Shown one piece after another: positions 90 to 51,850 of a stretch of DNA of 64,000 nucleotides; the stretch's first letter is position 1, and every line of letters starts with the position of its first letter. Source of the stretch: Saccostrea cucullata (lineage: Eukaryota); NCBI RefSeq assembly GCF_032062105.1, contig NW_026931074.1, positions 217,587-281,586 of the forward strand, written 5' to 3'. Both the position numbers and the translations under genes were made by a program. The notes below the pieces were generated by a model. That model searched no databases. It saw only the letters and a list, made by a program, of their open reading frames with translations, and had not been told where the DNA came from.

Positions 90-314
90 GTAGAGTCTAA
101 ACTATCAGTTTATTTGAGTGTTTCTTGTTGGTGTTTGTTACTTTAGGTCTACTTTTGTGTTTCTAATAGGATATGAAAGACAAATATTCCTGAATTTTTA
201 TTGTTCCTATGTTGTGAATGAAATGACTAAGTTCTGTTACATGTATCTATAGGCTATTGCTAAGGGTACATATTTCTGCATTCCTTGTTTTGATGTGAGC
301 ATGCGTTTCTACAG

Positions 315-472
315 GTACTGGTTATTAGCTGCTGATGACGGCAATCCCTCAGCTAGCGTCCCCGCTCAGACGACACTCGGCATGTTTTACTCTCGACCTG
401 ACAGTCTTGATCTCAAGAAAGCTTTCTTCTGGCACAATGAAGCTTGTGGAAATGGAAGCTTGGAATCTCAAG
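315..472 (+). CDS. Sel1-like repeat protein exon
   Basis: An acceptor tttctacag ends at 314. The exon translates YWLLAADDGNPSASVPAQTTLGMFYSRPDSLDLKKAFFWHNEACGNGSLESQ, a Sel1 repeat. The donor GTTTGT lies at 473. It is part of listed ORF 295..507. Confidence 0.55.
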
Positions 473-747
473 GTTTGTGGTTCATGGTCCATGTTGTGAA
501 ATCGTAGAAGCAGGTGAACTTAAGTTCCTTACACCTTCAGTGACCTAGGAGCAAAGATTAAAAATATTCAAATCATTAGATAATACCCTGCAAAATAGAA
601 TAAAGAAGTTAAATAAAGTTGACCAACTTGAAAGCAATGTGTCAAATTTATTTCATTTTCAAAGAACATTTATTTCAAACCATTGCCTGCTATTAGTTTT
701 ATATCATCAATTTCCTTCCCAATAAATTCCTGTTTTCTTTTGAACAG

Positions 748-919: not shown

Positions 920-1423
920 GTGAGATATAATACTGGTCCACAGGTAACATAAAAACAGTCAAACCGTAACATAAAAACAGTCAAACCTTGTTATCTCAAG
1001 TATAAGGGTCCAAGAAAAAACTTCAGGATAACCAAGGATTTATGATATCCAGGATGTTGAAATAGTACATATCCAACTAGCTCACTTCAACGTATACAGG
1101 GTATTTGAGATATGAAAATTCAACTGTATATCAATACATGTATCATAATTCTGAAATCTTTTTAAAAATTTTGAAGTGACTTCCACTTAATGTTAAATAT
1201 TGCATATGGAATGTCGAAGAAATTCGTGTGAATTAATATTTCATAGTTCCTGTTTATCTTTCAGTGTGCATCTGTCCATAACTGAACTTGCTTATATGAA
1301 CACCATAGTGTATACTCATATTAGAGCGGGGGTATTGCTAGTGAGCATTGGCTCACAGACTTCTTGTTTATCAAATGGTGTTAAAGCTGCAGGAATGTTA
1401 ACACCTAAGTTTTTCTTCCACAG

Positions 1424-1589
1424 GGTTTCACAATTTTCAGATGTCAAGCGATTATCAGAAGAAACAGGCTGTCTGCCCAGCTACCTAGCAAAGGGGATCG
1501 CGATGGGGTGCTTCTACTATGCCAGGTGTCTCCACGAGGGGCACGGGGTGAAGAAGGACGAGGAAGAGGCCAAGAAATATTATTCAAAG
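1424..1589 (+). CDS. Sel1-like repeat protein exon (3'-most seen; gene may continue or terminate by read-through at 1709)
   Basis: An acceptor ttcttccacag ends at 1423. The exon translates RVSQFSDVKRLSEETGCLPSYLAKGIAMGCFYYARCLHEGHGVKKDEEEAKKYYSK and lies within ORF 1200..1709. The donor AAG|GTAATC is at 1590. An alternative acceptor at 1440 is possible. If the 1590 donor is unused, the stop is at 1707-1709. Confidence 0.5.
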
Positions 1590-4500
1590 GTAATCAGGGG
1601 AAAAACTAAAGGTGGAAAAGGTCAAATGTACAATATACTCAGAGGTAGACAAAAGAGGCAAAGAGTGGAGAACTGGGACAAAAAAATTACTATACCTCAA
1701 CTGGAGTGATAAATAATTAACTCTCTCAAACATACACTAATCCTTTATATACATGGATATGGTAGGGGTAGACAACTAGCTAAAAAATGCATATGCCCCA
1801 TAAAATGAGTAAGGCTTTGAAATAATTTCTTAAAATACTCCTCCAAGGTAAACAGTCTAGAAACAACCCTTACAATGCCTATAACCACAAAAATACCATA
1901 TTGTGTTACTCTGCTGTGAAAGAAAAAAAACATTCGTGTTGGAAAATATTCAGTTTTATAAGTTACTATAGAATCCACTGGAAAGCTGCTTCAGTTATGT
2001 CCCTTTTACATGTATTTGAATATTTACTGCAATAAAAAAGAATTAAGCTAGAAATAATATAAAAGGTGTGTTTAATTAAGTTGTAACTTGTTTCTCAGCA
2101 TTATAGAATTAACCTGTTTTTGTGTAAATGGATAGCGCTGATATTTACTTCATTGCCTAGACCATCCCCCACATTTTTTTTAATGCTACATATTGGAATA
2201 TATATTTTATTATTCTACAGGAGTTACAGTTCTTAGGTTGATCTGTAAAAGCATATATACAATAATTCAACAGGAAGGGAAAATAATTGTAATCTGCATA
2301 CAATCTGCAACTGAGAATCTAAACACAAATTTGAAGCTTTTTTTATAATTGATGTAAGTTGGTTATTTTTGTGAAATGACATTCTCTTACACATTAAAAT
2401 TAAATTTGTACAGTGAGACAAATGACATATTTGGTTCATCTGGCATTCCTAATTTTTTAATTCATACATAATGAAGTTTATAAGTATGACAGACTATATA
2501 ATGAATTTTTGAGGAACTAAATAGTGGTGTAAAGGAGTATGTTATTGATGTTATAAAGTAGATATGATGGCCAGAGTGTGGATTTGAGAGGGCACATGAA
2601 CAGGTGCTAAATGTACAAGACTGCTTTATGATAGGAATTATAATATAGCTATAGTTTATCTTTAGGTTTGAATTAATGCCTGTAGAACATAGACAGACTG
2701 CCTTACCACTGACAAAGATTTCCTTTTCACAGTTTAAAAAATGGGACTTCTTTGCTCTATACTGTCAAAGTGTTTTTAGCTCATTTTGACTTCTTTACAA
2801 GAACCACTGGTGTGGTTTTAACCAAAGTTATCACAAAGCATCCTTGGATGAAAGGGATTCTTAATTGTTCAAATGAAGGACTAAGTCCTATTCCAAAGGG
2901 AGATTATATATATAAAAAAAGGCAAACTAGAGTGGAGGACATTAAAAAACCTGTTTCAAATCCTATTGGCCCAGGGACAGGGTGGGGCCACAATATGGCA
3001 TCAAAGTTTTAATTGAAACATATACCAGGTGATTACATTCTTCAACAGTCTTCTGAAAAAAAAGTCTGAAAATTTGAAACAATGTGAAAATTTTCTGACG
3101 TTAATACATCACTGTGTTAATCCTAATAATACAATAATCTACAATCAAACCTTGTTACCTTAATCTTTGGGGAAGTGAAAAAACTGAGGTATTCAAGGAT
3201 TTTAGATGTTGAGGGTAAAATACATAAAGAATATTAATGTTCAAGTACCCAATGACTCCAGATTTGAAATGTATTCTAAATAGATAAAGTAAAAAACAAA
3301 CCAAAAAATACATCAATATGTTTTTAATTTAAATCAATTAGACATCTTTAAATCTAAATTCAAAATCTTATTTCACAATGAAATGGAAATACAAGGAATC
3401 ACTGTCTAGTTTGTTTGGTATGCCAGGGATATCAATGATAGTTGGAACTGGGGAACAATTTATGTATAATATGTTGTCCATTATGCAAAATTATGCAAAT
3501 TATTCCACGTTTTCAACTATCGCTGATGTCCCAACAAACTAAAATTCCTTAAGCATCCCCTTGTAGTGTGGATTCAGAGACCCTTAGAGTGGGCTATGAT
3601 ATGGGGTTGTAATTTTTTTTGAGAAAACAAAAATATTAGAAATCTTCAGAAGAACAGTAGAGCTAATGTTACTCAGCTGAGCAGTATGGCCTATAGGTCT
3701 CTTGTTATTTCAAGGATTATTTTCTCAATCCCCGCAAAACCAAAAATTTATATTATATCACAAAATGATAGAGCAGGTAAAATTTCAATTAAAAAATAAA
3801 CTAAAATTTAAACTTTTAATAAATATTTGTTTTTTATCAGCAAATATTTCTCATAATTATCTTAACCTGATAGCATTGTGTTTCATAACAGATGTCATAT
3901 AGAGTCATTCCTATCAAGGTATTGTCCACAGTCCTATATTGTAAACTTTAGTGTTTGTCTGTACTTTTACATTGTTTATTATGATAATTGATGACAGAGA
4001 GCTACTATAATGTTAATATCTTTAATTTTATGTCAGATAATGCACTTGATGGCCATTTTACTGTTTCATGAAATGTCAGTTTTAACATTTAAGTTAATGT
4101 CAGATGCCCCCACTTACAAACAAAATGTCTGACTTTGCAATTTAAAGTAATACCATTCTGATGACTATAACTTTTTATGAATAATAAATTATTTGTACCT
4201 CCCAGTATCTGGCTACAAAATTCCATATACAATGTATGTAGTGGATTTAATAGATAAAACTCCTGTTCTTTCACTGCTACCCAAAATGTATAATATTAGT
4301 TATCAATGTCCAATCAAGGGTTTACAGAGATTTAGTCAGGGTTGTATTTCATATTGTAAGGCCAAAGAGGGTGTGGAATACAACACAAGATAAATTCCTG
4401 TACACCCATGTATGAATCAGGAGTAAAATTTATTTCCTATGTAATCATGCAAATAATTTAGAAATGAAATGTACATGTATTATTGTTATTTCATTTACTC

Positions 4501-14142: not shown

Positions 14143-17100
14143 ATATCACTCAGTATAAGACACTGTGTCTGATACATCACTCAGGATAAAACACTGTGTC
14201 TGTGATACATCACTCAGGATAAGACACTGAGTCAATGTGTCTGATACATCACTCAGGATAAGACACTGAGTCTGTAATACAACACTCAGGATAAGACACT
14301 GTGTCTGATACATCACTCAGGATAAGACACTGAGTCTGTGATACATCACTCAGGATAAGACACTGAGTCTGTGATACATCACTCAGGATAAGACACTGAG
14401 TCTGATACATCACTCAGGATAAGACACTGAGTCTGATACATCACTCAGGATAAGACACTGTGTCTGTGATACATCACTCAGGATAAGACACTGAGTCTGT
14501 GATACATCACTCAGGATAAGACACTGAGTCTGTGATACATCACTCAGGATAAGACACTGAGTTGATACATCTCTCAGGATAAGACACTGAGTCTGTGATA
14601 CATCACTCAGGATAAGACCCTGAGTCTGTGATACATCACTCAGGATAAGACACTGAGTCTGTGATACATCACTCAAGATAAGACACTGAGTTTGATACAT
14701 CACTCAGGATAAGACAATGAGTCTGTGATACATCACTCAGGATAAGACACTGTGTCTGATACATCACTCAGGAGTCTGTGATACATCACTCAGGATAAGA
14801 CACTGTGTCTGATACAGCACTCAGGATAAGACACTGAGTCTGTGATACATCACTCAGGATAAGACACCGAGACTGATACATCACTCGGGATAAGACACTG
14901 AGTCTGTGATACATCACTCAGGACAAGACACTGAGTCTCTGATACAGCACTCAGGATAAGACACTGAGTCTGTGATACATCACTAAGGATAAGACACTGA
15001 GTCTGTGATACATCACTCAGGATAAGACAATGTGTCTGATACATCACTCAGGATAATACACTGAGTCTGTGATACACTACTCAGGACAAGACACTGAGTC
15101 TGTGATACATCACTCAGGATAAGACACTGAGTCTGTGATACATCACTCAGGATAAGAGAATGAGTCTGATATCACTCAGGATAAGACACTGAGTCCGTAA
15201 TACAACACTCAGGATAAGACACTGTGTCTGTGATACATCACTCAGGATAAGACACTGAGTCTGTGATACATCACTCAGGATAAGACACTGTGTCTGATAC
15301 ATCACTCAGGATAAGACACTGAGTCTGTATTACATCACTCAGGATAAGACACTGAGTCTGTATTACATCACTCAGGATAAGACACTGAGTCTGATACATC
15401 ACTCAGGATAAGACACTGTGTCTGATACATCACTCAGGATAAGACACTGTGTCTGTGATACATCACTCAGGATAAGACACTGAGTCTGTGATACATCACT
15501 CAGGATAAGACAATGAGTCTGATATCACTCAGGATAAGACACTGAGTCTGTAATGCAACACTCAGGATAAGACACTGTGTCTGATTCATCACTCAGGATA
15601 AGACATTGAGTCTCTAATACAACACTCTGGATAAGACACTGAGTCTGTGATACATCACTCAGGATAAGACACTGAGTCTGTGATACATCACTCAAGATAA
15701 GACACTGAGTCTGATACATCACTCAGGACAAGACACTGAGTCTCTAATACAACACTCTGGATAAGACACTGAGTCTGTGATACATCACTCAGGATAAGAC
15801 ACTGAGTCTGTGATACATCACTCAGGATAAGACACTGAGTCTGTGATACATCACTCAGGATAAGACACTGAGTCTGTGATACATCACTCAGGATAAGACA
15901 CTGAGTCTCTGATACATCACTCAGGATAAGACACTGAGTCTGTGATACATCACTCAGGATAAGACACTGAGTCTGTGATACATCACTCATGATAAGACAC
16001 TGTGTCTGATACATCACTCAAGATAAGACACTGAGTCTGTGATACATCACTCAGGATACAACACTGAGTCTGTGATACATCACTCAGGATAAGACACTGA
16101 GTCTGTGATACATCACTAAGGATAAGACACTGAGTCTGATACATCACTCAGTATAAGACACTGTGTCTGTGATACATCACTCAGGATAAGACACACTGTG
16201 TCTGATACATCACTCAGGATAAGACACTGTGTCTGTGATACATCACTCAGGATAAGACACTGAGTCTGATACATCACTCAGGATAAGACACTGTGTCTGT
16301 GATACATCACTCAGGATAAGACACTGTGTCTGTGATACATCACTCAGGATAAGACACTGTGTCTGATACATCACTCAGGATAAGACACTGAGTCTGTGAT
16401 ACATCACTCAGGATAAGACACTGAGTCTGTAATACATCACTCAGGATAAGACACTGTGTCTGTGATACATCACTCAGGATAAGACACTGTGTCTGAAACA
16501 TCACTCAGGATAAGACACTAAGTCTGTATTACATCACTCAGGATAAGACACTGTGTCTGATACATCACTCAGGATAAGACATTGTGTCTGATACAACACT
16601 CAGGATAAGACACTGAGTCTGTGATACATCACTCAGGATAAGACACTGAGTCTGTGATACATCACTCAGGATAAGATACTGAGTCTGTAATACATCACTC
16701 AGGATAAGACACTGAGTCTGTGATACATCACTCAGGATAAGACACTGAGTCTGTAATACATCACTCAGGATAAGACACTGAGTCTGTGATACATCACTCA
16801 GGATAAGACACTGAGTCTGTGATACATCACTCAGGATAAGACACTGAGTCTGTGATACATCACTCAGGATAAGACACTGTGTCTGATACATCACTCAGGA
16901 TAAGACACTGAGTCTGTGATACATCACTCAGGATAAGATACTGAGTCTGTAATATATCACTCATGATAAGACAATGAATCTGATATCACTCAGGATAAGA
17001 CAAGTCTGACACTGAGTCTGTGTCTGTGATACATCACTCAGGATAAGTCTGTGACACTGATAAATACTGAGTCTCTGATACATCACTCAGGATAAGACAC

Positions 17101-19815
17101 TGTGTCTGATACATCACTCAGGATAAGACATTGAGTCTCTAATACATCACTCAGGATAAGACACTGAGTCTAATACATCACTCAGGATAAGACACTGAGT
17201 CTGTGATACATCACTCAGGATAAGACACTGAGTCTAATACATCACTCAAGATAAGACACAGTGTCTAATACATCACTCAGGATAAGACACTGAGTCTGTG
17301 ATACAACACTCAGGATAAGACACTGTGTCTGATACATCACTCAGGATAAGACAGTGTCTGTGATACATCACTCAGGATAAGACACTGAGTCTGTGACACA
17401 TCACTCAGGATAATACACTGAGTCTGTGATACATCACTCAGGGTAAGACACTGAGTCTGTGATACATCACTCAGGATAAGACACTGAGTCTGTGATACAT
17501 CACTCAGGATAAGACACTGAGTCTGTATTACATCACTCAGGATAAGACATTGAGTCTGTGATACAACACTCAGGATACAACACTGAGTCTGTGATACATC
17601 ACTCAGGATAAGAGACTGTGTCTCATACATCACTCAGGATAAGACACTGAGTCTGTGATACATCACTCAGGATAAGATACTGAGTCTGGGATACATCACT
17701 CAGGATAAGACAATGAGTCTGATATCACTCAGGATAAGACACTGAGTCTGTAATACATCACACAGGATAAGAGACTGTGTTTCATACATCACTCAGGATA
17801 AGACACTGAGTCTGTAATACATCACTCAGGATAAGACACTGAGTCTGTGATACATCACTCAGGATAAGACACTGAGTCTGTGATACATCACTCAAGATAA
17901 GACACTGAGTCTGATACATCACTCAGGACAAGACACTGAGTCTCTAATACAACACTCTGGATAAGACATGAGTCTGTGATACATCACTCAGGATAAGACA
18001 CTGAGTCTGTGATACATCACTCAAGATAAGACACTGAGTCTGATACATCACTCAGAATAAGATACTGTTTGTGTGATACATCACTCAGGATAAGATACTG
18101 AGTCTCTGATACAGCACTCAGGATAAGACACTGAGTCTGTGATACAACACTAAGGATAAGATACTGAGTCTGATACATCACTCAGTATAAGACACTGTGT
18201 CTGATACATCACTCAGGACAAGTGATACATCACTCAGGATAAGACACTGAGTCTGTGATACATCACTCAGGATAAGACACTGAGTCTGTGATACATCACT
18301 CAAGATAAGACACTGAGTCTGATACATCACTCAGAATAAGATACTGTTTCTGTGATACATCACTCAGGATAAGATACTGAGTCTCTGATACAGCACTCAG
18401 GATAAGACACTGAGTCTGTGATACATCACTCAGGATAAGACAATGAGTCTGATACATCACTCAGGATAAGACACTGTGTCTGTGATACATCACTCAGGAT
18501 AAGACACACTGTGTCTGATACATCACTCAGGATAAGACATTGTGTCTGATACATCACTCAGGATAAGACACTGAGTCTGTGATACATCACTCAGGATAAG
18601 ATACTGAGTCTGTAATATATCTCTCATGATAAGACAATGAGTCTGATATCACTCAGGATAAGACACTGAGTCTAATACATCACTCCGGATAAGACACTGT
18701 TTGTGTGATACATCACTCAGGATAAGACACACTGTGTCTGATACATCACTCAGGATAAGACATTGTGTCTGATACATCACTCAGGATAAGACACTGAGTC
18801 TGTGATACATCACTCAGGATAAGATACTGAGTCTGTAATATATCTCTCATGATAAGACAATGAGTCTGATATCACTCAGGATAAGACACTGAGTCTAATA
18901 CATCACTCAGGATAAGACACTGTGTCTGTGATACATCACTCAGGATAAGACATTTGTCTGGTACATCACTCAGGATAATAAACTGAGTCTGTGATACATC
19001 ACTCAGGATAAGACACTGTGTCTGATACATCACTCAGGATAAGACACTGAATCTGTGATACAACACTCAGGATAAGACACTGAGTCTGTGATACATCACT
19101 CAGGATAAGACACTGAGTCTGTGATACATCACTCAGGATAAGATACTGAGTCTGTAATATATCACTCATGATAAGACAATGAGTCTGATATCACTCAGGA
19201 TAAGACCCTGAGTCTGTAATACAACACTCAGAATAAGACACTGTGCCTGTGATACATCACTCAGGATAAGACACTGAGTCTGTGATACATCACTCAGGTT
19301 AAGATACTGAGTCTCTGATACATCACTCAGGATAAGACACTGTGTCTGATACATCACTCAGGATAAGACACTGAGTCTGAAACATCACTCAAGATAAGAC
19401 ACTGTGCCTGTGAAACATCACTCAGGATAAGACACTGAGTCTGTGATACATCACTCAGGATAAGACCCTGAGTCTGTGATACATCACTCAGGATAAGACA
19501 CTGAGTCTGTGATACAACACTCAGGATAAGACACTGTGTCTGATACATCACTCAGGATAAGACAGTGTCTGTGATACATCACTCAGGATAAGACACTGAG
19601 TCTGTGATACATCACTCAGGATAATACACTGAGTCTGTGATACATCACTCAGGATAAGACACTGAGTCTGTGATACATCACTCAGGATAAGACACTGAGT
19701 CTGTGATACATCACTCAGGATAAGACACTGTGTCTGTGATACATCACTCAGGATAAGACAGTGAGTCTGATATCACTCAGGTTAAGACAATGAGTCTGAT
19801 ACATCACTCAGGATT
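14143..19815. repeat. Minisatellite array, about 175 tandem copies of a 31-33-bp unit (gatacatcactcaggataagacactgagtctgt)
   Basis: A direct read shows continuous head-to-tail repetition over about 5.67 kb with point variants (gag/gtg, small indels). Each unit carries the inverted hexamers actcag and ctgagt, so a 6-bp stem-loop is possible. The minus-strand ORFs 14410..19551 (MMYQTQCLILSDVS...) are repeat-translation artefacts. Confidence 0.95.
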
Positions 19816-20139
19816 AAATTGTAATACAGAATTATGAAAAACAGACTCATGGTACATTTAAAACCCGAGTCCAAGTGTGTGATTTATTATTTTATTGAAT
19901 ACCTGGTACATAAACATGACAATGACTGCTGTGTCAGCAGAAATGAACCAGTCACACTTCATTTATGTTAATTTTCATCTGATCCTTACATTAAATCTCA
20001 TCAACAGATTTGCTGAAGTTTGGACGAGTAATTATTCATTTGTTCTTTTGTCCACGATTTTGTCAAACAAATTTACTCATACTTTTTCTCCATTGTTTTC
20101 TGAATAAATACAATTTATATCAAGGAAGATATATGTTAT

Positions 20140-20780
20140 CAATGCACCACAGTAAAATACAATATAGTTTTTTCAATAAAATTTGGAGACAAATTAACAA
20201 TATCTTAATGCATAAACTTTCTTATAGATAAAATTTCCAACACATTTGAGGTATGATTTCATCCATAAATTAGCTACACCTAAGCATACACATCAGGGTA
20301 TAATAATAGCACATGTTTAGGGCTGTCACGGGTCAATGATTTTTTTAGGTTCGGTTTCGGGTATTTCGGTTCGGGTAATTAATGGAATAAAAGCTAATGA
20401 TTTGTATTATTTTCAACAACAAAAAGAATATTTTCATTTAATCTTGAAATAGCAACATTTTAACTAGTTTAAAGTAGCTTCCTGACTAGACAACAATTGT
20501 ACCATATTATTTAAATCACCTTATAATTGCAATGTATTAAGAAATCTCTCGTTTTTGACGCCATTTTTTAGTAAAACCTACACTACTATACAAATGCACC
20601 ACAGTAAAATACAATATAGTTTTTTCAATAAAATTTGGAGACAAATTAACAATATCTTAATGCATTAACTTTCTTATAGATAAAATTTCCAACACATTTG
20701 AATGTAATTGTTCCATAAATTAGCTACACCTAAGGGTACATTTCGGGTATAATGACAGCCCTACACATGTTCCCAATCAC
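20140..20780. repeat. 145-bp direct duplication (20140-20285 and 20591-20740), each followed by a short segment in inverted orientation; foldback or MITE-like
   Basis: The two 145-bp copies (caccacagtaaaatacaatatagttttttcaataaaatttggagacaaattaacaatatcttaatgcat...ccataaattagctacacctaag) are more than 95% identical. The sequence after copy 1 (cacatgtttagggctgtcacgg, 20316-20337) is the reverse complement of the sequence after copy 2 (gacagccctacacatgt, 20750-20766). Confidence 0.5.
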
Positions 20781-20880
20781 AAAATTATACCATACATTTC
20801 ACTGTAAGAAGAATAAACATGTATCATTTAAACTTGTAAAAACACGACTGTAAAATGTTCAGCTCACTCATTGTCACTCT

Positions 20881-20905
20881 CACACACACACACACACACA
20901 CACAC
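20881..20905. repeat. (CA)12 microsatellite
   Basis: The sequence cacacacacacacacacacacacac is read directly. Confidence 0.9.
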
Positions 20906-21772
20906 CTCCTCTTTCAGGCCCTACTACCCTACTACTCTGAAGATACAGTGTCTAATGATGTCAAAGCTACTGCTGATTCCTATTTATCCAGTAAAGACCA
21001 GACAGGTTAACACTTATCAATAAATAATCTGTGATATCATGATACAAATAACCTGTTTTTCCATTCAGCCACAAAGAGGTAGAGTCTATAAAAGGTGCAT
21101 TTTAAAAACTGATAAAGATCAACATAAAAAAAAAACATTTGATTTCCTGAATGAAATATCAAAATCAGCTTTTAAAAAGCAAATCAACAAATTGCAAATT
21201 CAAAACTGATGGTGCAGCAAAGCAAAAATATAATAATAATATCCATACAAAAACAAAGTAAATCTACTCCCCTATACATAATACTTGTCTTCTCAGAACA
21301 CCCAAGATCACCTCATCAGATGATTTAAATTCCTTTAATATTTCTGTGTAATTGATAGATACTTAGCTATTAACATCCTTATTAAAATTTGGCAGTGAAG
21401 TAGAAAAAAAAGCCTCCCTAGAACCCTAAGCTTTCTGTGCTGTCAACGGCAAGATGTAATTTGTGCGTTGTGATTTCCCTAACTCTTTTGAAGAAGCTGA
21501 GATCATGATAATCTATCCCTTGATGCAAACATTAAAAAAGTAAAATACAACATACAATCCCCTGGCTCACAATTAAACTACCTGGTATTCTCACTGAGTT
21601 AGTACACAAGTACTCATCAATCAAGTCCATTTTATGGTGCCAATAAAAATATCTGCTATAGACTAGGAAAATAATTGCAGAGAAAAACAATATCTAACAT
21701 ATCCAGTATACTGCAATATGTTGTCATGGCAATACAGAGTAGACTGGAAGGAATTGAAGAGAGCCATGACAA

Positions 21773-22012
<240 letters not shown>

Positions 22013-22552
22013 TTATTAGACACATATTCTGCAGAGAGGACAAAGACATTCACTGATCACCTACCATATGTACAGGAATTCAAAATTTTGTAAATAAGAT
22101 AGGAACTTATAGACAGGTTTATGGGTTGAAATCTGTTGATTTATTTTACCAAGATCATTCCCAAGATATTTATTCTGGTATACTAACACTTAGTGTCACA
22201 AAATATTTACTTATTTACAGGTCAAAATCAGATCTCTCAAGATTATGGCAAAATAAATTTAGAAAATCTTTAGTCTACTTTAATATTCCTGTATTTGGCA
22301 ATGCATAGATTAACAAATGGAGATGCTGCCAGGGAGACACCCATTTGGTTTATGTATATTTCTATATATATATATATTTACCAAATCTACTTTAGTACCA
22401 TTATCTAATTTGTATGAATAGTTATACACCTCATGACATTATGTATGCAACACTTGAATTAATGCAATGCTTTTTGAATTGTTCAACATTTTCTCATGAT
22501 TATTTACTTTGTCTGCCACCAAGGTCTGAGTTGTTTTCCTTCTATCTAATCC

Positions 22553-22695
22553 TACACTTATCCCCATCCCTGGGCCTATCATTATGTATACTTATTCCCA
22601 CATCCCTGGGCCTATCATTATGTATACTTTTCCCCATCCCTGGGCCTATCATTATGCATACTTTTCCCCACCCTGGGCCTATCATTATGTATATT
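22553..22695. repeat. Intronic minisatellite, 4 copies of a ~36-bp unit (atccctgggcctatcattatgtatacttWtcccc)
   Basis: Four tandem copies are read directly. They begin about 12 nt beyond the GTAGCA splice donor of the 22707-22824 exon on the minus strand. Confidence 0.85.
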
Positions 22696-22706
22696 TTGTG
22701 TGCTAC

Positions 22707-22824
22707 CTTTTCTGTCTCTGTGCCAGTCAGTGGTTCTGCCAGGACATCTATATCTGACATGCTGGCCCCCACTTGGATGAAGCTGTAGGACCCTCTGGTG
22801 TTAATGTTGTTTCCCCATCTCGTC
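22707..22824 (-). CDS. Polyamine/spermine oxidase exon
   Basis: The minus-strand exon lies between acceptor ctctttacag and donor AAG|GTAGCA. It translates TRWGNNINTRGSYSFIQVGASMSDIDVLAEPLTGTETEK, corresponding to the ..RW....YTRGSYSY...G....D...LA.PL segment of vertebrate PAOX/SMOX. The phase is consistent with the flanking exons. Confidence 0.7.
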
Positions 22825-25750
22825 CTGTAAAGAGATCCAAACACTCAGTACAAACCCCACACTACATATACAAACTGACTTGTAGTATCTCTGTAATCTG
22901 CTGCTGTAAGCATATTTTGCCATTTCAAACAAGACAGACATACATCTGTTGATATTCAACTATGCATGACTGGTTTTATATATACGATCAAAATGAAGAC
23001 AAAATGCTCCATTATATATAAATCTTGTGTTTCATTAAACAATAACTTCACAGTAGTTACATTGATGTTTTAGATACTGTACTATGAAAGAAACTAGAAA
23101 ACATTTTAGAAAATAGGCCAGGGAATTGAATCCAGAATTTGGTTATCTAGCATTTCAGCCTATTTTATATCTTGACTCATCAGCAGCTCTGTTTGACTCA
23201 GCTCTATAAGTAACAAATAAATTGAAACACAGCTTACCATTTCCAATCTCTTACAGTATCTTAAAAGTATTATTAAAAAAAATTCTTTCATTTGTTTTAT
23301 TGCGTCCGAAGGGATTGAACCACTCTGTAATTTTTTTTTCTCCTGGTAAAAATGTTATTGTTTCTATTCTATGGCAGGGTCAGAAGGTCACCTGGTGTAG
23401 GTGACAAATATACCTGCTACCTTATACAGGTATTATATTAATTACAAATATTGGCACAGTGCCCCAATTCTTGGCCTGCTTAACCTCCTGATATATCGAT
23501 AGTTGTAAAATTGCCAAAGCTTTGTCTGGGCCCTGCCAACCATTGATCTCGAAACCCAAATAAACATTGCTAGGACCTTGGTCACTTGAAGTATTGATTA
23601 TTTTTGCCACTGTTGTGTACATCTACACTTAAATGCAGGTGTGGAACCAATGACCTAGATTTCTCCAAGTCTGATTTACAAACCAGTTTGAACTTCTGTT
23701 TACAAAAAGCTAGCAATTATGTGGTATTTACAAACTTGTAGTGTTCATAATTATTAGATTCAAGTTCATTCCAATGCAAAAACATAAAATCATATCCACT
23801 TCCTGGTGAATAGCATGAAAGTTATCTCTGTTTTCCTTAGGGACAAAAGGCTCTATAAAATCAACATGCTGGAAAGGAAGAAAAGGTTACAGAAAATGGC
23901 TTTGAATAACTGCATTAGTGCCACTTATTTTACTTTACGAAGAACTAAGATCTTCATATTCCTGAACAAAATCAAGAAAACATGCTGGCATCAGGGACTT
24001 AGCTAACATTACTCTTCATCCTCTGCATCATGAACATAATAGGCCCTGGAATGCATGTGGTATCTCCACTCAGATATAAATGTTAAAGGCATGATGCTGC
24101 AAAAACCTGCTGCCTGCTAATCAGCAGCCAATAAACCTGTTATTGAAGGTTAGTTCCTTCATTTCTAACAACCAACTCTACTGCTGCCTGCAGGAAAATC
24201 ATACAAGGTATGGGGAAATGAGTGGCCCAGTTTTACCTGTAAATCAGCTGATTGGTCACCTGTTCCTCAGTGAAGCAGGGGCCTCATTATCTGAACTAGA
24301 GGTGTGTAAATCATGACAGCTATAAACTAAGGACAGTGGAAGATTACAGAGGTCAAACTAGTACCCTGAGGCCAAGGTCAAGGTCAGCCCATTGGTCATA
24401 TCAGTGTCTTCCTCCCAACATTTTACAATATATCATCAACTTTCTGAGACCTTTAGATCTATTTCTAGAATGGAATGCTGTTGACAGTTGATATGCTTTA
24501 TATTGTTATTTTGCACCTAAATCCAGACAATATTAACAAGGAACATTTTGACTTAATTTCTCCTGCACAATACACCTGGGCAATGTGATGTAAACTGTTC
24601 AAATTGTACAGTCTAGGTGACTGGTTATTATGTCTCCATATTTAATCAAATATGAGTGGATTCAATTAGACTAATGCTTAACTGATTTCCTGACTGAATA
24701 CTGGGTGCCTAGAAAGAAACCCTTTCACCTGGGTGTTATCTATTCTATAGACCCGAGTCAGGCTCCTTTCGATAAATTACCTTGTCAGAAGGGAAGGCAA
24801 TGACTTCAGCAATCGAAAATCAATTTTTCCAATCTCAACTAAAATAACATCATCTTTTGGCTGCTTTCTCAACCAATGACTAGGCAAACTACACGAGCAC
24901 TGAAGCAAGGAACAAATGCAATCTGCAGATCCCCCACTTTATACCATAACAATGCATGCAATTCTGCTATATTCCATCAGACTCAAGAAATCCTTAGTCC
25001 GTGCCTAAATATTGATTGAGGAGGGTTAAAGGTCCTTGTTCGCTCGACATCTGACCTCCCATTCACACCGCTGCAATATATACATATATGACCAAGTGTC
25101 ATGGCCCACAGCTTCATAAAAAAACACAGGCTGTGTGCTGCAGTTTTAAACATAATCTGTCTAGGTATACATTTAGCCTCTTAGAAAACATTACTGTAGT
25201 TAGTTCCAGTTGTCAAATCGAAAATGCTCAGAAATACTGTCATTAATAAAGAATTTTACTATTGTACATCTGAAGAAAAATGTAGGAGTGGGGGATAATC
25301 TTACAATGAACAAGCTTTTATGATGATGAAAATTGAAGGAAGGGAGGCACTTTCTGCATGAACTATTAACATGCTCAGAGTGCACTAAGTAGAGATCTGC
25401 CATTTTTATCAACTTGGTGATGCCATCAACTCCTAGGTTTTTTACCTTTTGACCCCCTGATAAAACCCGTAGAGAACACTTTCTTTCTTCTTAGCAAACT
25501 TGACAATTTAGGGGACATTACACCTTTGGCAGATGCTATATTGATGAGATAAATGTCCAGGTTTTATTATTTCCTGATTAATATTGATGCTTTCTCAGGA
25601 AAAAAATATTTTGATTCAATGTAACCAACAACAAAATATGCTATATATAATCTTGAAAAGGTCAATATATTGGGTGCAAACAATGCCTACTTTAACAAAT
25701 TAATACCAGAAGTTGATAATCTGTTGTTTATAAGATAAAAGCTTAGATAC

Positions 25751-25880
25751 CTGATGATTTTCTTGGGGCTGGGAATGTCATCTTTTTGAAGAAATCTTTT
25801 GAGGACCTCCACTAAATCCTCTGCTATTTGCTCCTCTGTAAGAGATTCCATGTATAGGGCCTCCTTCCCACTCAGCCAGC
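25751..25880 (-). CDS. Polyamine/spermine oxidase exon
   Basis: The minus-strand exon lies between acceptor tatatcttgtag and donor CAG|GTATCT. It translates (G)WLSGKEALYMESLTEEQIAEDLVEVLKRFLQKDDIPSPKKII, parallel to PAOX G(F)IAG.E..FME.LSDEEV......LR...G.P.LP.PK..L. It lies within ORF 25687..25914. Confidence 0.7.
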
Positions 25881-40785: not shown

Positions 40786-41700
40786 GCACGCGTGCGCATG
40801 TGAATGCATGTGCATAATGACCATATCGTCTTGTCTATACAATCTATATATTTTAATATACTAAATATTAAAGTATTTAATCCAAAAGCATTAAAAAATA
40901 CGCTCATTCAGGTGTTTTTTTGATTTTACTCATTACATGTGCACGCACGTACATACATGAGCATGGTGACCATACCTTCTTGTAGAAGTCTATTACATCT
41001 ATCTGTGTTCTAAATCCCACTCCGTTTGGTAACCAAGGGAGTTATAACTGTTTAAAGTTTCAGCCAATCAGATTGCAGTGCACGTGTATGGATGTGCATG
41101 GTGACAAAACCTTCTTGCAGAAGTCCATTATATCTATCTATGTTCCAAATCCCATCCTGTTTGGTTGAAAACCAAGGGAGTTATAGCTATTTAAAGTTTC
41201 AACCAATCAGATTGCAGCGCACGTACACGCACGTGTACGGATGTGCATGGCGACCATACCTTCTTGTAGAAGTTTATTATATCTATCTATGCTCAAAATC
41301 CCATCCTGTTTGGTTGAAAACCAAGGGAGTTATAACTATTAAAAGTTTAAGCCAATCAGATTGCAGCGCACGTGCATGCACGTGTTTTCATGATAATTGT
41401 TATATATGATGTTGTAGGATATCCTAATGCATGGCTATGTTCAAAATTTCAAAGGATTTCATCAAAAAACAAGAAAGATATTGAGACTTTGGTTTCAGCC
41501 AATTAGAGCGAAGCGCACGTGCATGCGCGTGAGATCTTGCTAATTTGACCATGTCATGTTGTCTATGCAACTAATATATCCTTATATTATGAGTTTCAAA
41601 GCATTTCATCAAAAAGGTAAAAAGTTACGCCTATATCAATTAAATCGGTCATTTCACGTGTTGCACGTGCACACTCTTGCAAGCACGTGCGCGCAAAATG
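40786..41700. repeat. Tandem satellite of ~142-bp units (3 well-conserved copies at 40936-41380 plus degenerate flanking copies) rich in CACGTG and CCAAT motifs
   Basis: The unit ...gcacgtRYRYgcaYgtg...catggYgaccataccttcttgtagaagtYtattaYatctatctRtgYtcMaaatcccaYcctgtttggttgaaaaccaagggagttataRctRtttaaagtttcaRccaatcagattgcagYgcacgt is repeated head-to-tail. Further decayed copies at 41490-41530 and 41640-41700 retain gccaat..gcgcacgtgcatgcgcgtg. Confidence 0.8.
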
Positions 41701-47329: not shown

Positions 47330-50215
47330 ACCATCAACACTGGAATGTGCAAATAATGTATAGAGGAGGAGATTCAGCACAGATTGCGAGAGAAGTGGGA
47401 ATCAATGAGTGCAGAAAACCACCGGAGCTATTAAGATAAGACTGGCCTCGGGCCAGACCGTCATGTACATTGGGGATGAAGAACTACTTAAGGAAGGATT
47501 TGTCATAATGATCAACCAACGGGCTATAAAATCACTCATGGAATGGACACACATCAGCAAGAGAACAATGGCAGCACGATCCTATTCAAGATACAGGAGA
47601 TTGTCGGTGATCCAAGCATATGCACCACATAATCAAAAGAAAGAAGAGGAGAAAAACCAATTCTTTCAGGAGTAACAAGCGACCTTGGATGAATGTAATA
47701 CGGACAACATCATTATTATCATGGGGGACTCATGGCCAAGATAGGGAGTGGCAATAATGGATATGAAAGAACTATAGGTATCCAAGGACTGGGAACACAG
47801 AACGAGAATGGAGAAATACTGTGTGAATTTAGTCGGACCAAACGGACTTGTAATCATAGGAACACTGTTCCCCCATAAAGACGTACACAAAGCAACTTGG
47901 GTGTCTGCTACTGGAACATTGAAAACCCAGATTGACATCTTCTCATTAGTGGACAGTGGAGATCTTCTGTTCTTGACATCAAGGTTCAGAGGGGAGCGGA
48001 TGCCGACAGCGACCACTAGCTGGTGAAGACCCGAATCAGGATACGGCTCACCACACAAGTATAAGAACAAGTTGAAACCAAGATTGGATGTAGAACGCCT
48101 CAAAAACAACAAAGTAAAAACAATGACTTTGCGAGAAAGAAATTAGAATAGCACAGGGAAAAGACGGATGATATCGAGGAAATGTGGAAAATCAGAAGAT
48201 GGCATATGTGAATTCAGCAGAGAAAGTACTTGGCTACAAACATTAGATCAACGAAAACACCTTGAAGTTGATAGATGAAAGAAAAGACATCAAGAAAAAG
48301 ATAGAGAGCAAAAGATCAGAAAGAGTCAAGACTAGGTTGAATGAAAATTACAAGGAGAGAGACAAAGTCGTCAAGAAAAGCGATAGAGGACAAGAGGAGA
48401 TGGATGGGAGAGAAGGCTGAGCGAGCACATAAAGCAGCCGAGAACAGGAGGTAGAAGGAACTGTACAGCATATTAAAGCAGCTGACAAGAAAGAGTAGTA
48501 AGGAAACAGCAGCGATGAAGAGCAAAGAGGGGGAGCTGCTGAAAATAAAGAAACGAGGCTTGCCAGATGGAGGGAACATTCTGAGGAAGTGCTCATCATG
48601 GACACGCCAGAATCCCCACCACAAGATGAACATGAGGAGGGAGAATAGCTAGACTTCTCGGTTGAGCCACCCACCACACAGGAAATAAGGACTACACTGA
48701 AGACACTTCGGAATGGAAAGGCCCCTGGAGCAGATCAAATAACTGCAGAAAAGTTAAAGGCAGACCTTGATAGGAGTAGCCAAGAATTGAAGCACACCTT
48801 TGACCAGATACGGAAAGAGGAAAAGGTGCCCAAAGAATGAACCAGAGGACTGATCTGTAAAATTCACAAAAGAGGCAACAGGACTGCAGCAAGTGGAAGG
48901 GAGTCACATTGCCCGTAGCCAGCAAAGCACTCATAAGGATCATCATCAAGATAATACAGGCTGGAGTTGACCACACCCTTAGCAAAGAGCAGGCACGGTT
49001 TCAGAAAGGGAGAGGGACTTTTAATCAGATTTTCTTCCTCAGGAACATACTGAAGCAAGACAATGAGTAGAATGCTACACTGTACATCCATTTTGTGGAC
49101 TTTGAGAAAGCTTTCGACTCGGTGCACAGAGACAGCATTTCGGTCATCATGAAGAAATATGGTATACCCATAAACTGATTACGATGGTCAAAGCCCTGTA
49201 TGACAAGTTTGTTCTGTGATTGATGACAACGAGACCAACTACTCCTTTCCTGTGATGACTGGTGTCAAACAAGGATGCTGAATGTCAGGGTTCTTCTTCC
49301 GCCTAGTGATAGACTGGGTGATGCAACAGACTGTCAGAGAAAAGAGAACAGGAATAAGACTTTCACCACTATGCTTGAAAACCTTGACTTTGCTGACGAC
49401 ATTGCCCTACTGTCATCAGCAATGAACTATCTTACGTCAAAGACAACAAAACTGGAAGAAAAATCCGTAAAAGTTGGGTTGAGGCTGAATGCCAAGAAGT
49501 GCAAAGTGATGAAGATAAATAGCAAGAGTAAAATCAGCCTGATAGTCGGAAACGGGGAAGCCGACGAGGCGAACAACTTCACTTACCTCGGTGCCAATCG
49601 ACCGATGATCGGTCGATGTCTGTTGCCCACCACTCAACCCCCCGATGACCTCAGATTCAACGGACACTTGACGATGCTCGGCCATACATCGGCCAATCCT
49701 TGAAAGATGTGTTAATGACGGGTTGCCAACGATTAGTTAAATGGCCTCAGTAACCGTCCTATTACTAAAGGAGTCCAGCCGGCAACCACACCATTTTTAT
49801 CAAAAAACGCATCGGTTTCTAATCGTTTACCCCATTGCTGGATAATGTGACTGATGCTTTACCAAGACAGAGGAAAAGAAGATCATTCAGTCCAAGTGCC
49901 TCAGAAGGATTCTAAAGGTCAGATGGCAGCAGCATATCCCAAACAAGACATCTCTGGAAATGGCAGAAGCAGAAAACATTAGTTGCGAGGTGGGCAGGAG
50001 GAGATGGAATTGGATCGGCCATGTGCTTAGAAAGGATCACACGGATGACTGCGTTGTGACCCTCGGTTGGACGCCTGAGGGGAGAAGAAACGAGGGCAAT
50101 ATGACGGTAGATGGTGCAGGCTGGAACACGGGACGCCGTGCAGCCTCAGACCGGCCTCAGTGGAAAGGAGATATCCAGGCCTTGTGTGCCTCCTGGCACG
50201 GAGAGAATTAAGGTA
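47330..50215 (+). mobile_element. Degenerate RTE-clade non-LTR retrotransposon (APE endonuclease plus reverse transcriptase), frameshifted and interrupted
   Basis: The endonuclease motifs appear in ORFs 47409..47675 (..RRLSVIQAYAPHNQKKEEEKNQFFQE) and 47808..48026 (..KDVHKATWVSATGTLKTQIDIFSLVD..). RT motifs in three frames over 48700-49560 include NGKAPGADQITAEKLKAD, FVDFEKAFDSVHRDSI, NLDFADDIALLS and KCKVMKI. The C-terminal ORF 49960..50211 (EVGRRRWNWIGHVLRKDHTDDCVVTLGWTPEGRRNEG...RPQWKGDIQALCASWHGEN*) is characteristic of RTE-type elements. Multiple stops and frameshifts indicate a dead copy. Confidence 0.75.
49588..49862 (-). mobile_element. Nested insertion of a ~275-bp CCGATG/CGATCG-rich non-autonomous element (antisense) inside the LINE RT region
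   Basis: This segment interrupts the RT reading frame between the FADD motif (about 49380) and the RTE C-terminal motif (49960). Its reverse complement matches the sequence that follows the LINE stop codon (50225-50470), which starts atcagtcacattatSCARCaatgggg... Additional copies lie at 50475-50575, 51290-51385 and 51500-51850. Confidence 0.5.
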
Positions 50216-50224
50216 AAGTAAATT

Positions 50225-51850
50225 ATCAGTCACATTATGCAACAATGGGGTATACGATGAGAAACCGATGCGTTTTTTGATAAAAATGGCGTGTTTGCCG
50301 GCTGGACACCTATAGTAATCGAACGTTGACTGAGGCCATTTGGCGAATCGGTGGGGGTCATGGTCGACCGACGTACGAACGATGTTTACCAATGTATGAG
50401 CGATGTAATATACAACGGCCGGTAACCCTGGAACATCGATTTATCATTAGCAATGCATCGCTTGGCCTTTGTAATTCCGACCGGCAACCATGCCATTTTT
50501 ATCAAAAAACGCATTGGTTGCCCATCGTATACCCCTTCGCTGGATAATGTGACTGATACATTAAGGACTACTAGGCCGATGTGGACCGATGTTGGGGCAT
50601 CGCTCACACCACGAATTACCACTGATTACCACCGGTTTACGGCCACCGGCCGGGAAATTTGACTAAGGCATTAGGTTGGGTTGAATTTTGACTGACATGT
50701 TGCATTCTGATTTCCAGAACTTTCAGTCTAACTTTGGCATATTCACCTGATACAGAGGGATCACAGCAGGTGTACTGGTCGACAGGGGATGCCCACACCT
50801 CTTATGCCTAGGTCACATTTAAGCCGATGGTCGGGTGACTAAATTTTTCTGGTCTTGTCGGCTGAAAAACATGATCGGTCGACACGAGTATTGGGCGACA
50901 CGGAGCAGTCACATTAATTCCTAGGAACACCGATGACTTGGATAAATAACACAACAAATCTTTTTTCTTTAGAAATCAGCAATATTTTTCATAGATCTAT
51001 ATTCAGATAGGTGATGTGAGTGATGTTTGCAAGGCACAGTGGTAGCTTTTTGTAAGATTGTAGCTCAGTGTTAAATCAAGATTTCTTTCTGTCTTACGGA
51101 TTAATTATCTAATGTTATTTCCATTTAAAAATATATATCAATCCATGCATCAACATTTTGTTTGTATTGTGAATCCTTTATGCCTAGGTCACATTTCCCG
51201 GCCGGTAGCCGCAGACCGGTGGTAATCGTTGGTAATCCGTGGTGTTAATGATGCCCCAACATCGGTCCACATCGGCCTAGTAGTCCTCACAGAATCAGTC
51301 ACATTATCCAGCGATGGGTATTCGATGGGCAACCAATGCCTTTTATGATAAAAATGGCGTGGTTGCCGGCCGGACTTTCAAAGGCCCAGCGAAGCATTGC
51401 TAATCATAAAACGATGTTCCAGGATAATCGACCGATGTGTATTACATCGCTCATACATTGGTGAACATCGTTCGAACATCGGTTGACTACGGACCAATGT
51501 CTGGTCGAACATCGACCGATGATCGGCCGTTATCTGTTGGACACCACTCAACCCCCCAATGACCTCAGATTCAACGGATATTGGACGATGCTTGGCCATA
51601 CATCGGCCGATCCGTGAAAGATGTGTTAATGATGGGTTGCCGATGAGGAGCAATGTGAGGCATCGTTGGAGACATCGCTGAATTTTAACTACGAATTATT
51701 TCTTACCGATGACCCCACCGATTCGCAAAATGGCCTCAGTCACCTTCCGATCACTAGTGGTGCCCGGCCGGCAACCACGCCATTTTCATCAAAAAACGCA
51801 TCGGTTTCTCATCGTATACCCTATCGCTGGATAATGTGACTGATACTTTA
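50225..51850. repeat. Cluster of at least 5 full or partial copies of the ~330-bp CGATCG/CCGATG-rich element (LINE 3'UTR-related) in both orientations, forming several long inverted repeats
   Basis: Module A (atcagtcacattatccagcRatggggtaWWcgatgRgaaaccRatgcgttttttgataaaaatggYgtgKttgccgg) lies at 50225-50300 (+), 50480-50570 (-), 51300-51385 (+) and 51780-51850 (-), and also at 49790-49860 (-). Segment 50360-50470 is the reverse complement of 51395-51500. Segment 50575-50660 is the reverse complement of 51195-51290. Direct copies of cctYttatgcctaggtcacattt lie at 50795 and 51175. The ORFs 50027..50662 and 51378..51653 are artefacts. Confidence 0.6.

Follow-up and report, generated by a model that had tools for sequence, protein, structure and literature searches.

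The 64,000-nucleotide stretch of Saccostrea cucullata DNA analysed here (contig NW_026931074.1, positions 217,587 to 281,586 of the forward strand; referred to as the window, with all coordinates counted from its first letter) contains a 5.7-kb tandem array of short units, which is probably a neutral, lineage-specific minisatellite. The array lies in non-coding DNA past the 3' end of a spermine-oxidase-like gene of this bivalve. A preliminary description of the locus had left the choice between a recombination hotspot, a protein-binding array and a lineage-specific satellite family, and it is the last of these options that the evidence favours. Using Tandem Repeats Finder (TRF), which this description had proposed as a check of consensus and copy number, we found one tandem array at 14145-19814 (5670 bp) with a period of 33, 175.4 copies, 86% matches, 5% indels and a score of 7288; periods of 66 and 97 score slightly higher for the same array. 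Location and number of copies (about 175) given earlier agree with these values, and the consensus quoted there is correct, as are its inverted hexamers ACTCAG and CTGAGT. A unit census based on the anchor CACTCAGGATAAGAC with up to three mismatches allowed yielded 175 units, arranged head-to-tail and on the + strand throughout, and no anchor match outside the array within the 64-kb window. According to their length, the units fall into classes of 33 bp (n = 113), 31 bp (n = 45) and 29 bp (n = 8), together with eight irregular ones.

14145..19814, + strand: minisatellite array of 175 units with the consensus GATACATCACTCAGGATAAGACACTGAGTCTGT, a mosaic of 33-, 31- and 29-bp units (TRF, unit census, per-column profile)
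14340..14372, + strand: example of a consensus 33-bp unit, ACTCAG(N9)CTGAGT inverted repeat, DNA minimum free energy -4.3 kcal/mol (sequence, fold)

With its head-to-tail units, a period of 33 and the 31- and 29-bp variants, the array lies well within the unit size of minisatellites (about 10-100 bp), and its 5670 bp with sharp junctions correspond to the array size of this class (about 0.5-30 kb at a discrete locus with unique flanks). The flanks are unique within the window, the junctions on both sides are clean, and no degenerate units or proto-units above chance were detected in the flanking DNA. An inverted 'CAGACTCA' immediately downstream of the array was considered as a relic of a unit and rejected, as it is within chance expectation. 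The array is less uniform than the preliminary description, which had the unit repeating “extremely regularly”, would suggest: the consensus is present in only 43 of 174 units, 81 distinct unit sequences can be distinguished, and the mean pairwise edit distance between units amounts to 4.05 per unit. Besides, CpG dinucleotides are very scarce in the array, with four observed versus 237 expected from base composition, because the founder unit was CpG-free and few new CpGs have arisen since.

The array does not encode protein. Five of the six reading frames contain a stop codon in every unit, whereas the sixth (minus strand, QTQCLILSDVS) is open in the 33-mer and interrupted by the 31-mers, with a longest open reading frame (ORF) of 109 aa. 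As the 31-mers break the sole open frame, we rejected a reading as coding repeat. The longest ORF of the array (16565-16894, minus strand) gave a Pfam match to 'Colipase-like' with 27.2 bits versus a cutoff of 27, a false positive caused by the periodic cysteines, which could nevertheless spread via automated annotation. No real protein homologues of the array ORFs were found: their translations had no match in a word-indexed protein search, and exact look-ups of two ORFs were likewise empty. An exhaustive HMMER search with the array ORF returned 162 matches, all of which were discarded as artefacts of an 11-residue repeat period with an identity of at most 7/11 to the unit peptide. One of these matches was traced back to its DNA, an ENA contig of mollusc type in which two unrelated 33-bp arrays (2306-2649 and 3205-3577) had been called a 229-aa 'protein'.

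The 31-bp variant has lost GT from TCTGTGATAC, and this length is linked to the substitution A20T (odds ratio 6.4, Fisher p = 1.5e-6). Therefore, at least two subtypes of the unit are intermingled in the array, one being the 33-mer, which contains CTGAGTCTGTGATAC, and the other the 31-mer, in which CTGTGTCTGATAC is enriched. The short units are spaced every 3-4 units beyond random placement (matched by 0 of 2000 permutations), and this recurrence accounts for the autocorrelation peaks of the array at 97 and 130 bp as well as for the better TRF scores of the periods 66 and 97. A strict higher-order repeat is not present within the array; there is only this loose 97/130-bp periodicity plus duplications of whole blocks of units:

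18481..18908, + strand: 7-unit (223-bp) block duplication, an exact 205-bp repeat at 18481 and 18704
15629..15768, + strand: arm of a long-range block recurrence, an exact 140-bp match to 17829-17968, about 2.2 kb apart

A second similar long-range pair is located at 17268 and 19479. The offsets of the block recurrences are 2200-2211 bp (67-69 units), and a lag of 67 units gives the lowest mean distance between units. Single variants are interspersed and unclustered, and identical units with variants at multiple sites (double-variant units) are found far apart, as copying of units within the array would lead one to expect. Most likely, the array would have grown, and would still be reshuffled, by replication slippage, unequal exchange between sister chromatids or homologues, and gene conversion; affecting single units as well as blocks of several units, these processes may have given rise to the mosaic of two linked subtypes. 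We also considered that the unit itself was built from two half-units of 14 and 19 bp (CACTCAG-GATAAGA and CACTGAG-TCTGT-GATACAT). This idea is suggestive and was not retained, as it did not reach significance (P = 0.06, 6% of shuffles were as good); under such an origin, the near-palindromic heptamer ACTSAGT would trivially yield the dyad of the unit.

This 6-bp dyad, ACTCAG(N9)CTGAGT, had been highlighted in the preliminary description as unusual and potentially meaningful, and every repeat was said to be able to fold into a stem-loop. Neither point withstands closer analysis. Among shuffled 33-mers of matched composition, 5.9% contain, in tandem context, a perfect inverted repeat of at least 6 bp with a loop of 3-15 nt. 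With DNA parameters, the fold energy of a single unit is -4.3 kcal/mol, and three units fold with -13.3 kcal/mol compared to -8.4 +/- 4.2 kcal/mol for shuffles (z = -1.16), 13% of which are equally stable. Among the 166 regular units, the 6-bp stem is intact in 92, carries one mismatch in 57 and two or three mismatches in 17, which means that it is broken in 45% of them. The most variable column of the unit, A20T, lies inside the stem (20/113 of the 33-mers, 26/45 of the 31-mers), while T4, the pairing partner of A20, is practically invariant. In consequence, 45 units have an uncompensated T.T at this pair, a change on both sides of the stem is seen in a single one of the 166 units, and compensatory maintenance of the stem among these units was not observed. 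Using rare variants (at most four carriers) as a proxy for independent mutations, we found them evenly spread across stem, loop and spacer (binomial p = 0.80 for the stem) and also between the first 14 unit columns and the rest (p = 1.0). Based on stem integrity, compensation, the spread of rare variants and fold energy relative to shuffles, we rejected the reading as a selected hairpin. The stem and the sub-motifs of the unit show no sign of constraint, and the dyad is an incidental feature of the founder sequence and not a maintained structure. Neither Rfam families above threshold nor tRNA genes were detected anywhere in the 64-kb window.

Searches for relatives of the unit elsewhere found none in any of the collections covered. 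The JGI metagenome contigs, IMG/VR and a prokaryotic genome set do not contain the 33-bp unit, and the one isolated match of a shorter 19-mer in the same collections lies in non-repetitive sequence and is due to chance. A 21-mer of the unit gave no match in full-text literature, and the unit core is absent on both strands from the supplementary files of the satellite catalogues of C. gigas and L. fortunei (PMC8268682, PMC12818792). At orthologous loci, no conserved array was found; Tegillarca granosa has unrelated 35-bp x 28 and 91-bp x 9.7 arrays there (2614-3668 and 15632-16512 of that sequence), and a related ENA contig also bears unrelated repeats only. Published satellitomes of bivalves comprise 52-129 families of tandem repeats, and the CgiSat monomers of C. 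gigas range from 21 to 3287 bp (PMC8268682, PMC12818792). Tandem arrays with a unit size of about 33 bp are evidently common in comparable genomes.

The gene next to the array was recognized by a minus-strand ORF of 312 aa at 31446-32384, which encodes a flavin amine oxidase (PF01593/PF13450). Its best named relatives are spermine oxidases of molluscs, with Tegillarca granosa (72%) and Mizuhopecten yessoensis (71%) followed by gastropods, and it is 95% identical to a protein from a transcript assembly of a related species, which was used to assign the exons.

21776..37315, - strand: spermine-oxidase-like gene with the coding exons 37315-37136, 32363-31455, 25887-25750, 22832-22707 and 21892-21776 (Pfam, tblastn with the 95%-identical protein)
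19815..21775, no strand assigned: spacer of 1.96 kb between array and stop

As the last coding exon is 21892-21776, the edge of the array lies 1.96 kb past the stop, in line with the distance of about 2 kb to the 3' end of the amine-oxidase gene noted before. The 3' untranslated region of the transcript from the related species aligns down to 21382, and therefore the array is probably located beyond the transcription unit of the oxidase. On the other side, the nearest coding signal left of the array is a Sel1-repeat-like ORF at 1200-1709 (+). Together with a second such fragment at 295-507 (+), it is weak (E = 7.7e-6, below the Pfam cutoff), and hints at a gene on the + strand in the leftmost part of the window; in that case, the spacer harbouring the array would lie between convergent genes.

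Several further repeats and mobile elements populate the window. The spacer between array and oxidase contains a direct duplication (20141-20310 and 20593-20759, about 450 bp spacing) with 91% identity overall and 99% in a 109-bp core. A 34-bp x 4.2 tandem repeat (ACTTTTCCCCATCCCTGGGCCTATCATTATGTAT) is found at 22556-22697, about 10 bp into the intron after coding exon 4 of the oxidase, and a 149-bp x 3.0 tandem repeat with 82% matches at 40957-41378 has no second copy in the window. A GC-rich block at 47400-50400 (GC 0.45, AT skew 0.31) represents a degenerate, frameshifted retrotransposon of the non-long-terminal-repeat type on the + strand, whose ORF at 49275-49703 has a weak match to RVT_1 (E = 2e-6, 28.1 bits versus a cutoff of 29.6). 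In addition, two composite elements of about 1 kb are present at 27763-28763 and 32870-33811, and a fragment near 2782-3024. Each full element combines i) a GGCCCATGGGCC palindrome and a GCTCACCTGAG motif, ii) about three 166-bp tandem repeats and iii) an (ACAG/ACGG)n microsatellite as well as a GCTCACTTGAG...CTCAGGTGAGC hairpin formed by a subterminal inverted repeat (subTIR) and an inverted repeat (IR). Both are intronic in the spermine-oxidase-like gene: exons 3 and 2 enclose the first element, and the second lies in the large intron that separates exon 2 from exon 1. Their layout matches the architecture of HINE (Helentron-associated) elements of oysters and other bivalves such as pearl, Cg_HINE, DTC84 and MgE (PMC7492417).

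The presence of these elements raises the possibility that the array is itself borne by or derived from a transposon, for example as an expanded version of the repeats in the centre of a Helentron-type non-autonomous element (HINE) or of some other mobile element, in which case it would belong to a dispersed family. Such an origin has precedents, as Helentron-derived elements carry many tandem repeats of bivalves and many satellite DNAs are associated with elements (PMC7492417, PMC8268682), and two full HINE-like elements with 166-bp repeats plus the fragment of a third share the window with the array. However, the HINE terminal motif GCTCACCTGAG, which occurs eight times in the window (0.42 expected), is found seven times at or beside the two elements and once at 3672, but never near the array, and the bracketing by subTIR, IR, microsatellite and palindrome that defines a HINE is absent within 800 bp of either array edge. 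Moreover, the flanks have neither a second copy in the window nor degenerate units, the 33-mer resembles neither the HINE repeats nor any other part of the window, and 175 units by far exceed the few monomers reported inside such elements (about six on average for Cg170-type arrays; PMC8268682, PMC7492417). A transposon origin of the array is thus unsupported and appears unlikely. We regard it as very unlikely that the array is a functional platform, be it with phased protein-binding sites or with cruciform/hairpin units, which acts as insulator, regulatory element or recombination hotspot. The mean unit length of 32.3 bp (about 3.07 helical turns), the location of the array, flanked by an upstream gene region and the 3' end of the oxidase, and the low variability of CACTCAGGATAAGA, which with 94-100% per column varies least within the unit, would all be compatible with such a role, and each unit contains GATAAG and TGAGTC as putative GATA-like and AP-1-like half-sites. 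These putative half-sites are no more than 6-mers, though, and the rare variants reveal no excess conservation, the stem is broken in 45% of the units without compensation, the weak hairpin is within the distribution of shuffles, and no homologous array was found in other species among the collections searched. Slightly less probable still is a helically phased binding platform or recombination-initiating element that is kept by copy number and phasing rather than by exact sequence.

Tandem arrays are prone to collapse or expansion, so that length or arrangement of the array might have been misreconstructed from repetitive reads. Nevertheless, 81 distinct units, the irregular mix of 33, 31 and 29 bp and the unique irregular units provide ample anchoring, and the array passes cleanly into unique DNA on both sides; an error would affect its copy number at most and not its existence, which makes an assembly artefact the least probable of these explanations. 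A CRISPR array was rejected, as the units abut without spacers and the context is a mollusc gene with introns; the eukaryotic, non-CRISPR assignment made at the outset was therefore right. Compared to all of these, the reading as a neutral minisatellite accommodates the data best, yet some observations weigh against it. The case for neutrality comes from one allele of one locus, and the uniqueness of the array was established within the 64-kb window only. A gradient of divergence from edge to centre, which is often predicted by simple models of unequal exchange, is absent from the array. Finally, high-frequency variants cluster in the latter half of the unit, namely in columns 15, 20, 25, 27 and 33, as might be seen if CACTCAGGATAAGA were mildly constrained; the test with rare variants, however, lends this no support.

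Beyond annotation, the array matters little: masking it as a tandem repeat is appropriate, and it should not be listed as a CRISPR-like array, a coding repeat or a cluster of structured RNAs. Should the array turn out to be polymorphic, population or parentage studies of the host bivalve could employ it as a hypervariable marker. The array and the HINE elements of the window also exemplify the high density of tandem repeats in bivalve euchromatin.

In the context of known repeat systems, the short inverted repeat in each monomer is a feature that the array shares with dyad-symmetric centromeric satellites, for which a non-B DNA conformation at centromeres was reportedly proposed by Kasinathan and Henikoff in 2018. 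Dyad structures have also been named among the general features of satellites (PMC10048060). In contrast to the centromeric examples, the 6-bp dyad described here is within chance and disrupted in 45% of the units, and the array extends over 5.7 kb beside genes and not on the scale of a centromere. The central repeats of HINE elements (PMC7492417) occur in the same type of genome, with elements in the very same window, and these elements are a known route by which tandem repeats originate and spread in bivalves (PMC7492417). Still, they consist of few monomers (about 166 bp in our case) between subTIR, IR, microsatellite and palindrome, whereas the array is made up of 175 x 33 bp without such flanks. 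The short-monomer families of bivalve satellitomes (CgiSat, PMC8268682; LfoSat001-129, PMC12818792) are, like the array, non-coding tandem repeats of a bivalve host, which are scattered in gene-rich euchromatin rather than assembled in classical heterochromatin blocks. The unit differs from these families, as it is found in neither the C. gigas nor the L. fortunei supplements and is known from one array in a 64-kb window.

With the minisatellites or variable-number tandem repeats of animals, the array has in common a unit of 10-100 bp, a head-to-tail arrangement over kilobases, the non-coding, euchromatic and gene-adjacent location, and the interspersed unit variants and block duplications. 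A classic example is the 33-bp repeat of the human myoglobin gene, which Jeffreys reportedly used. The classic human loci are marked by length polymorphism and hotspot activity, and the array differs from them in its unrelated sequence and in having no G-rich core motif. Taken together, the array is probably an ordinary minisatellite.

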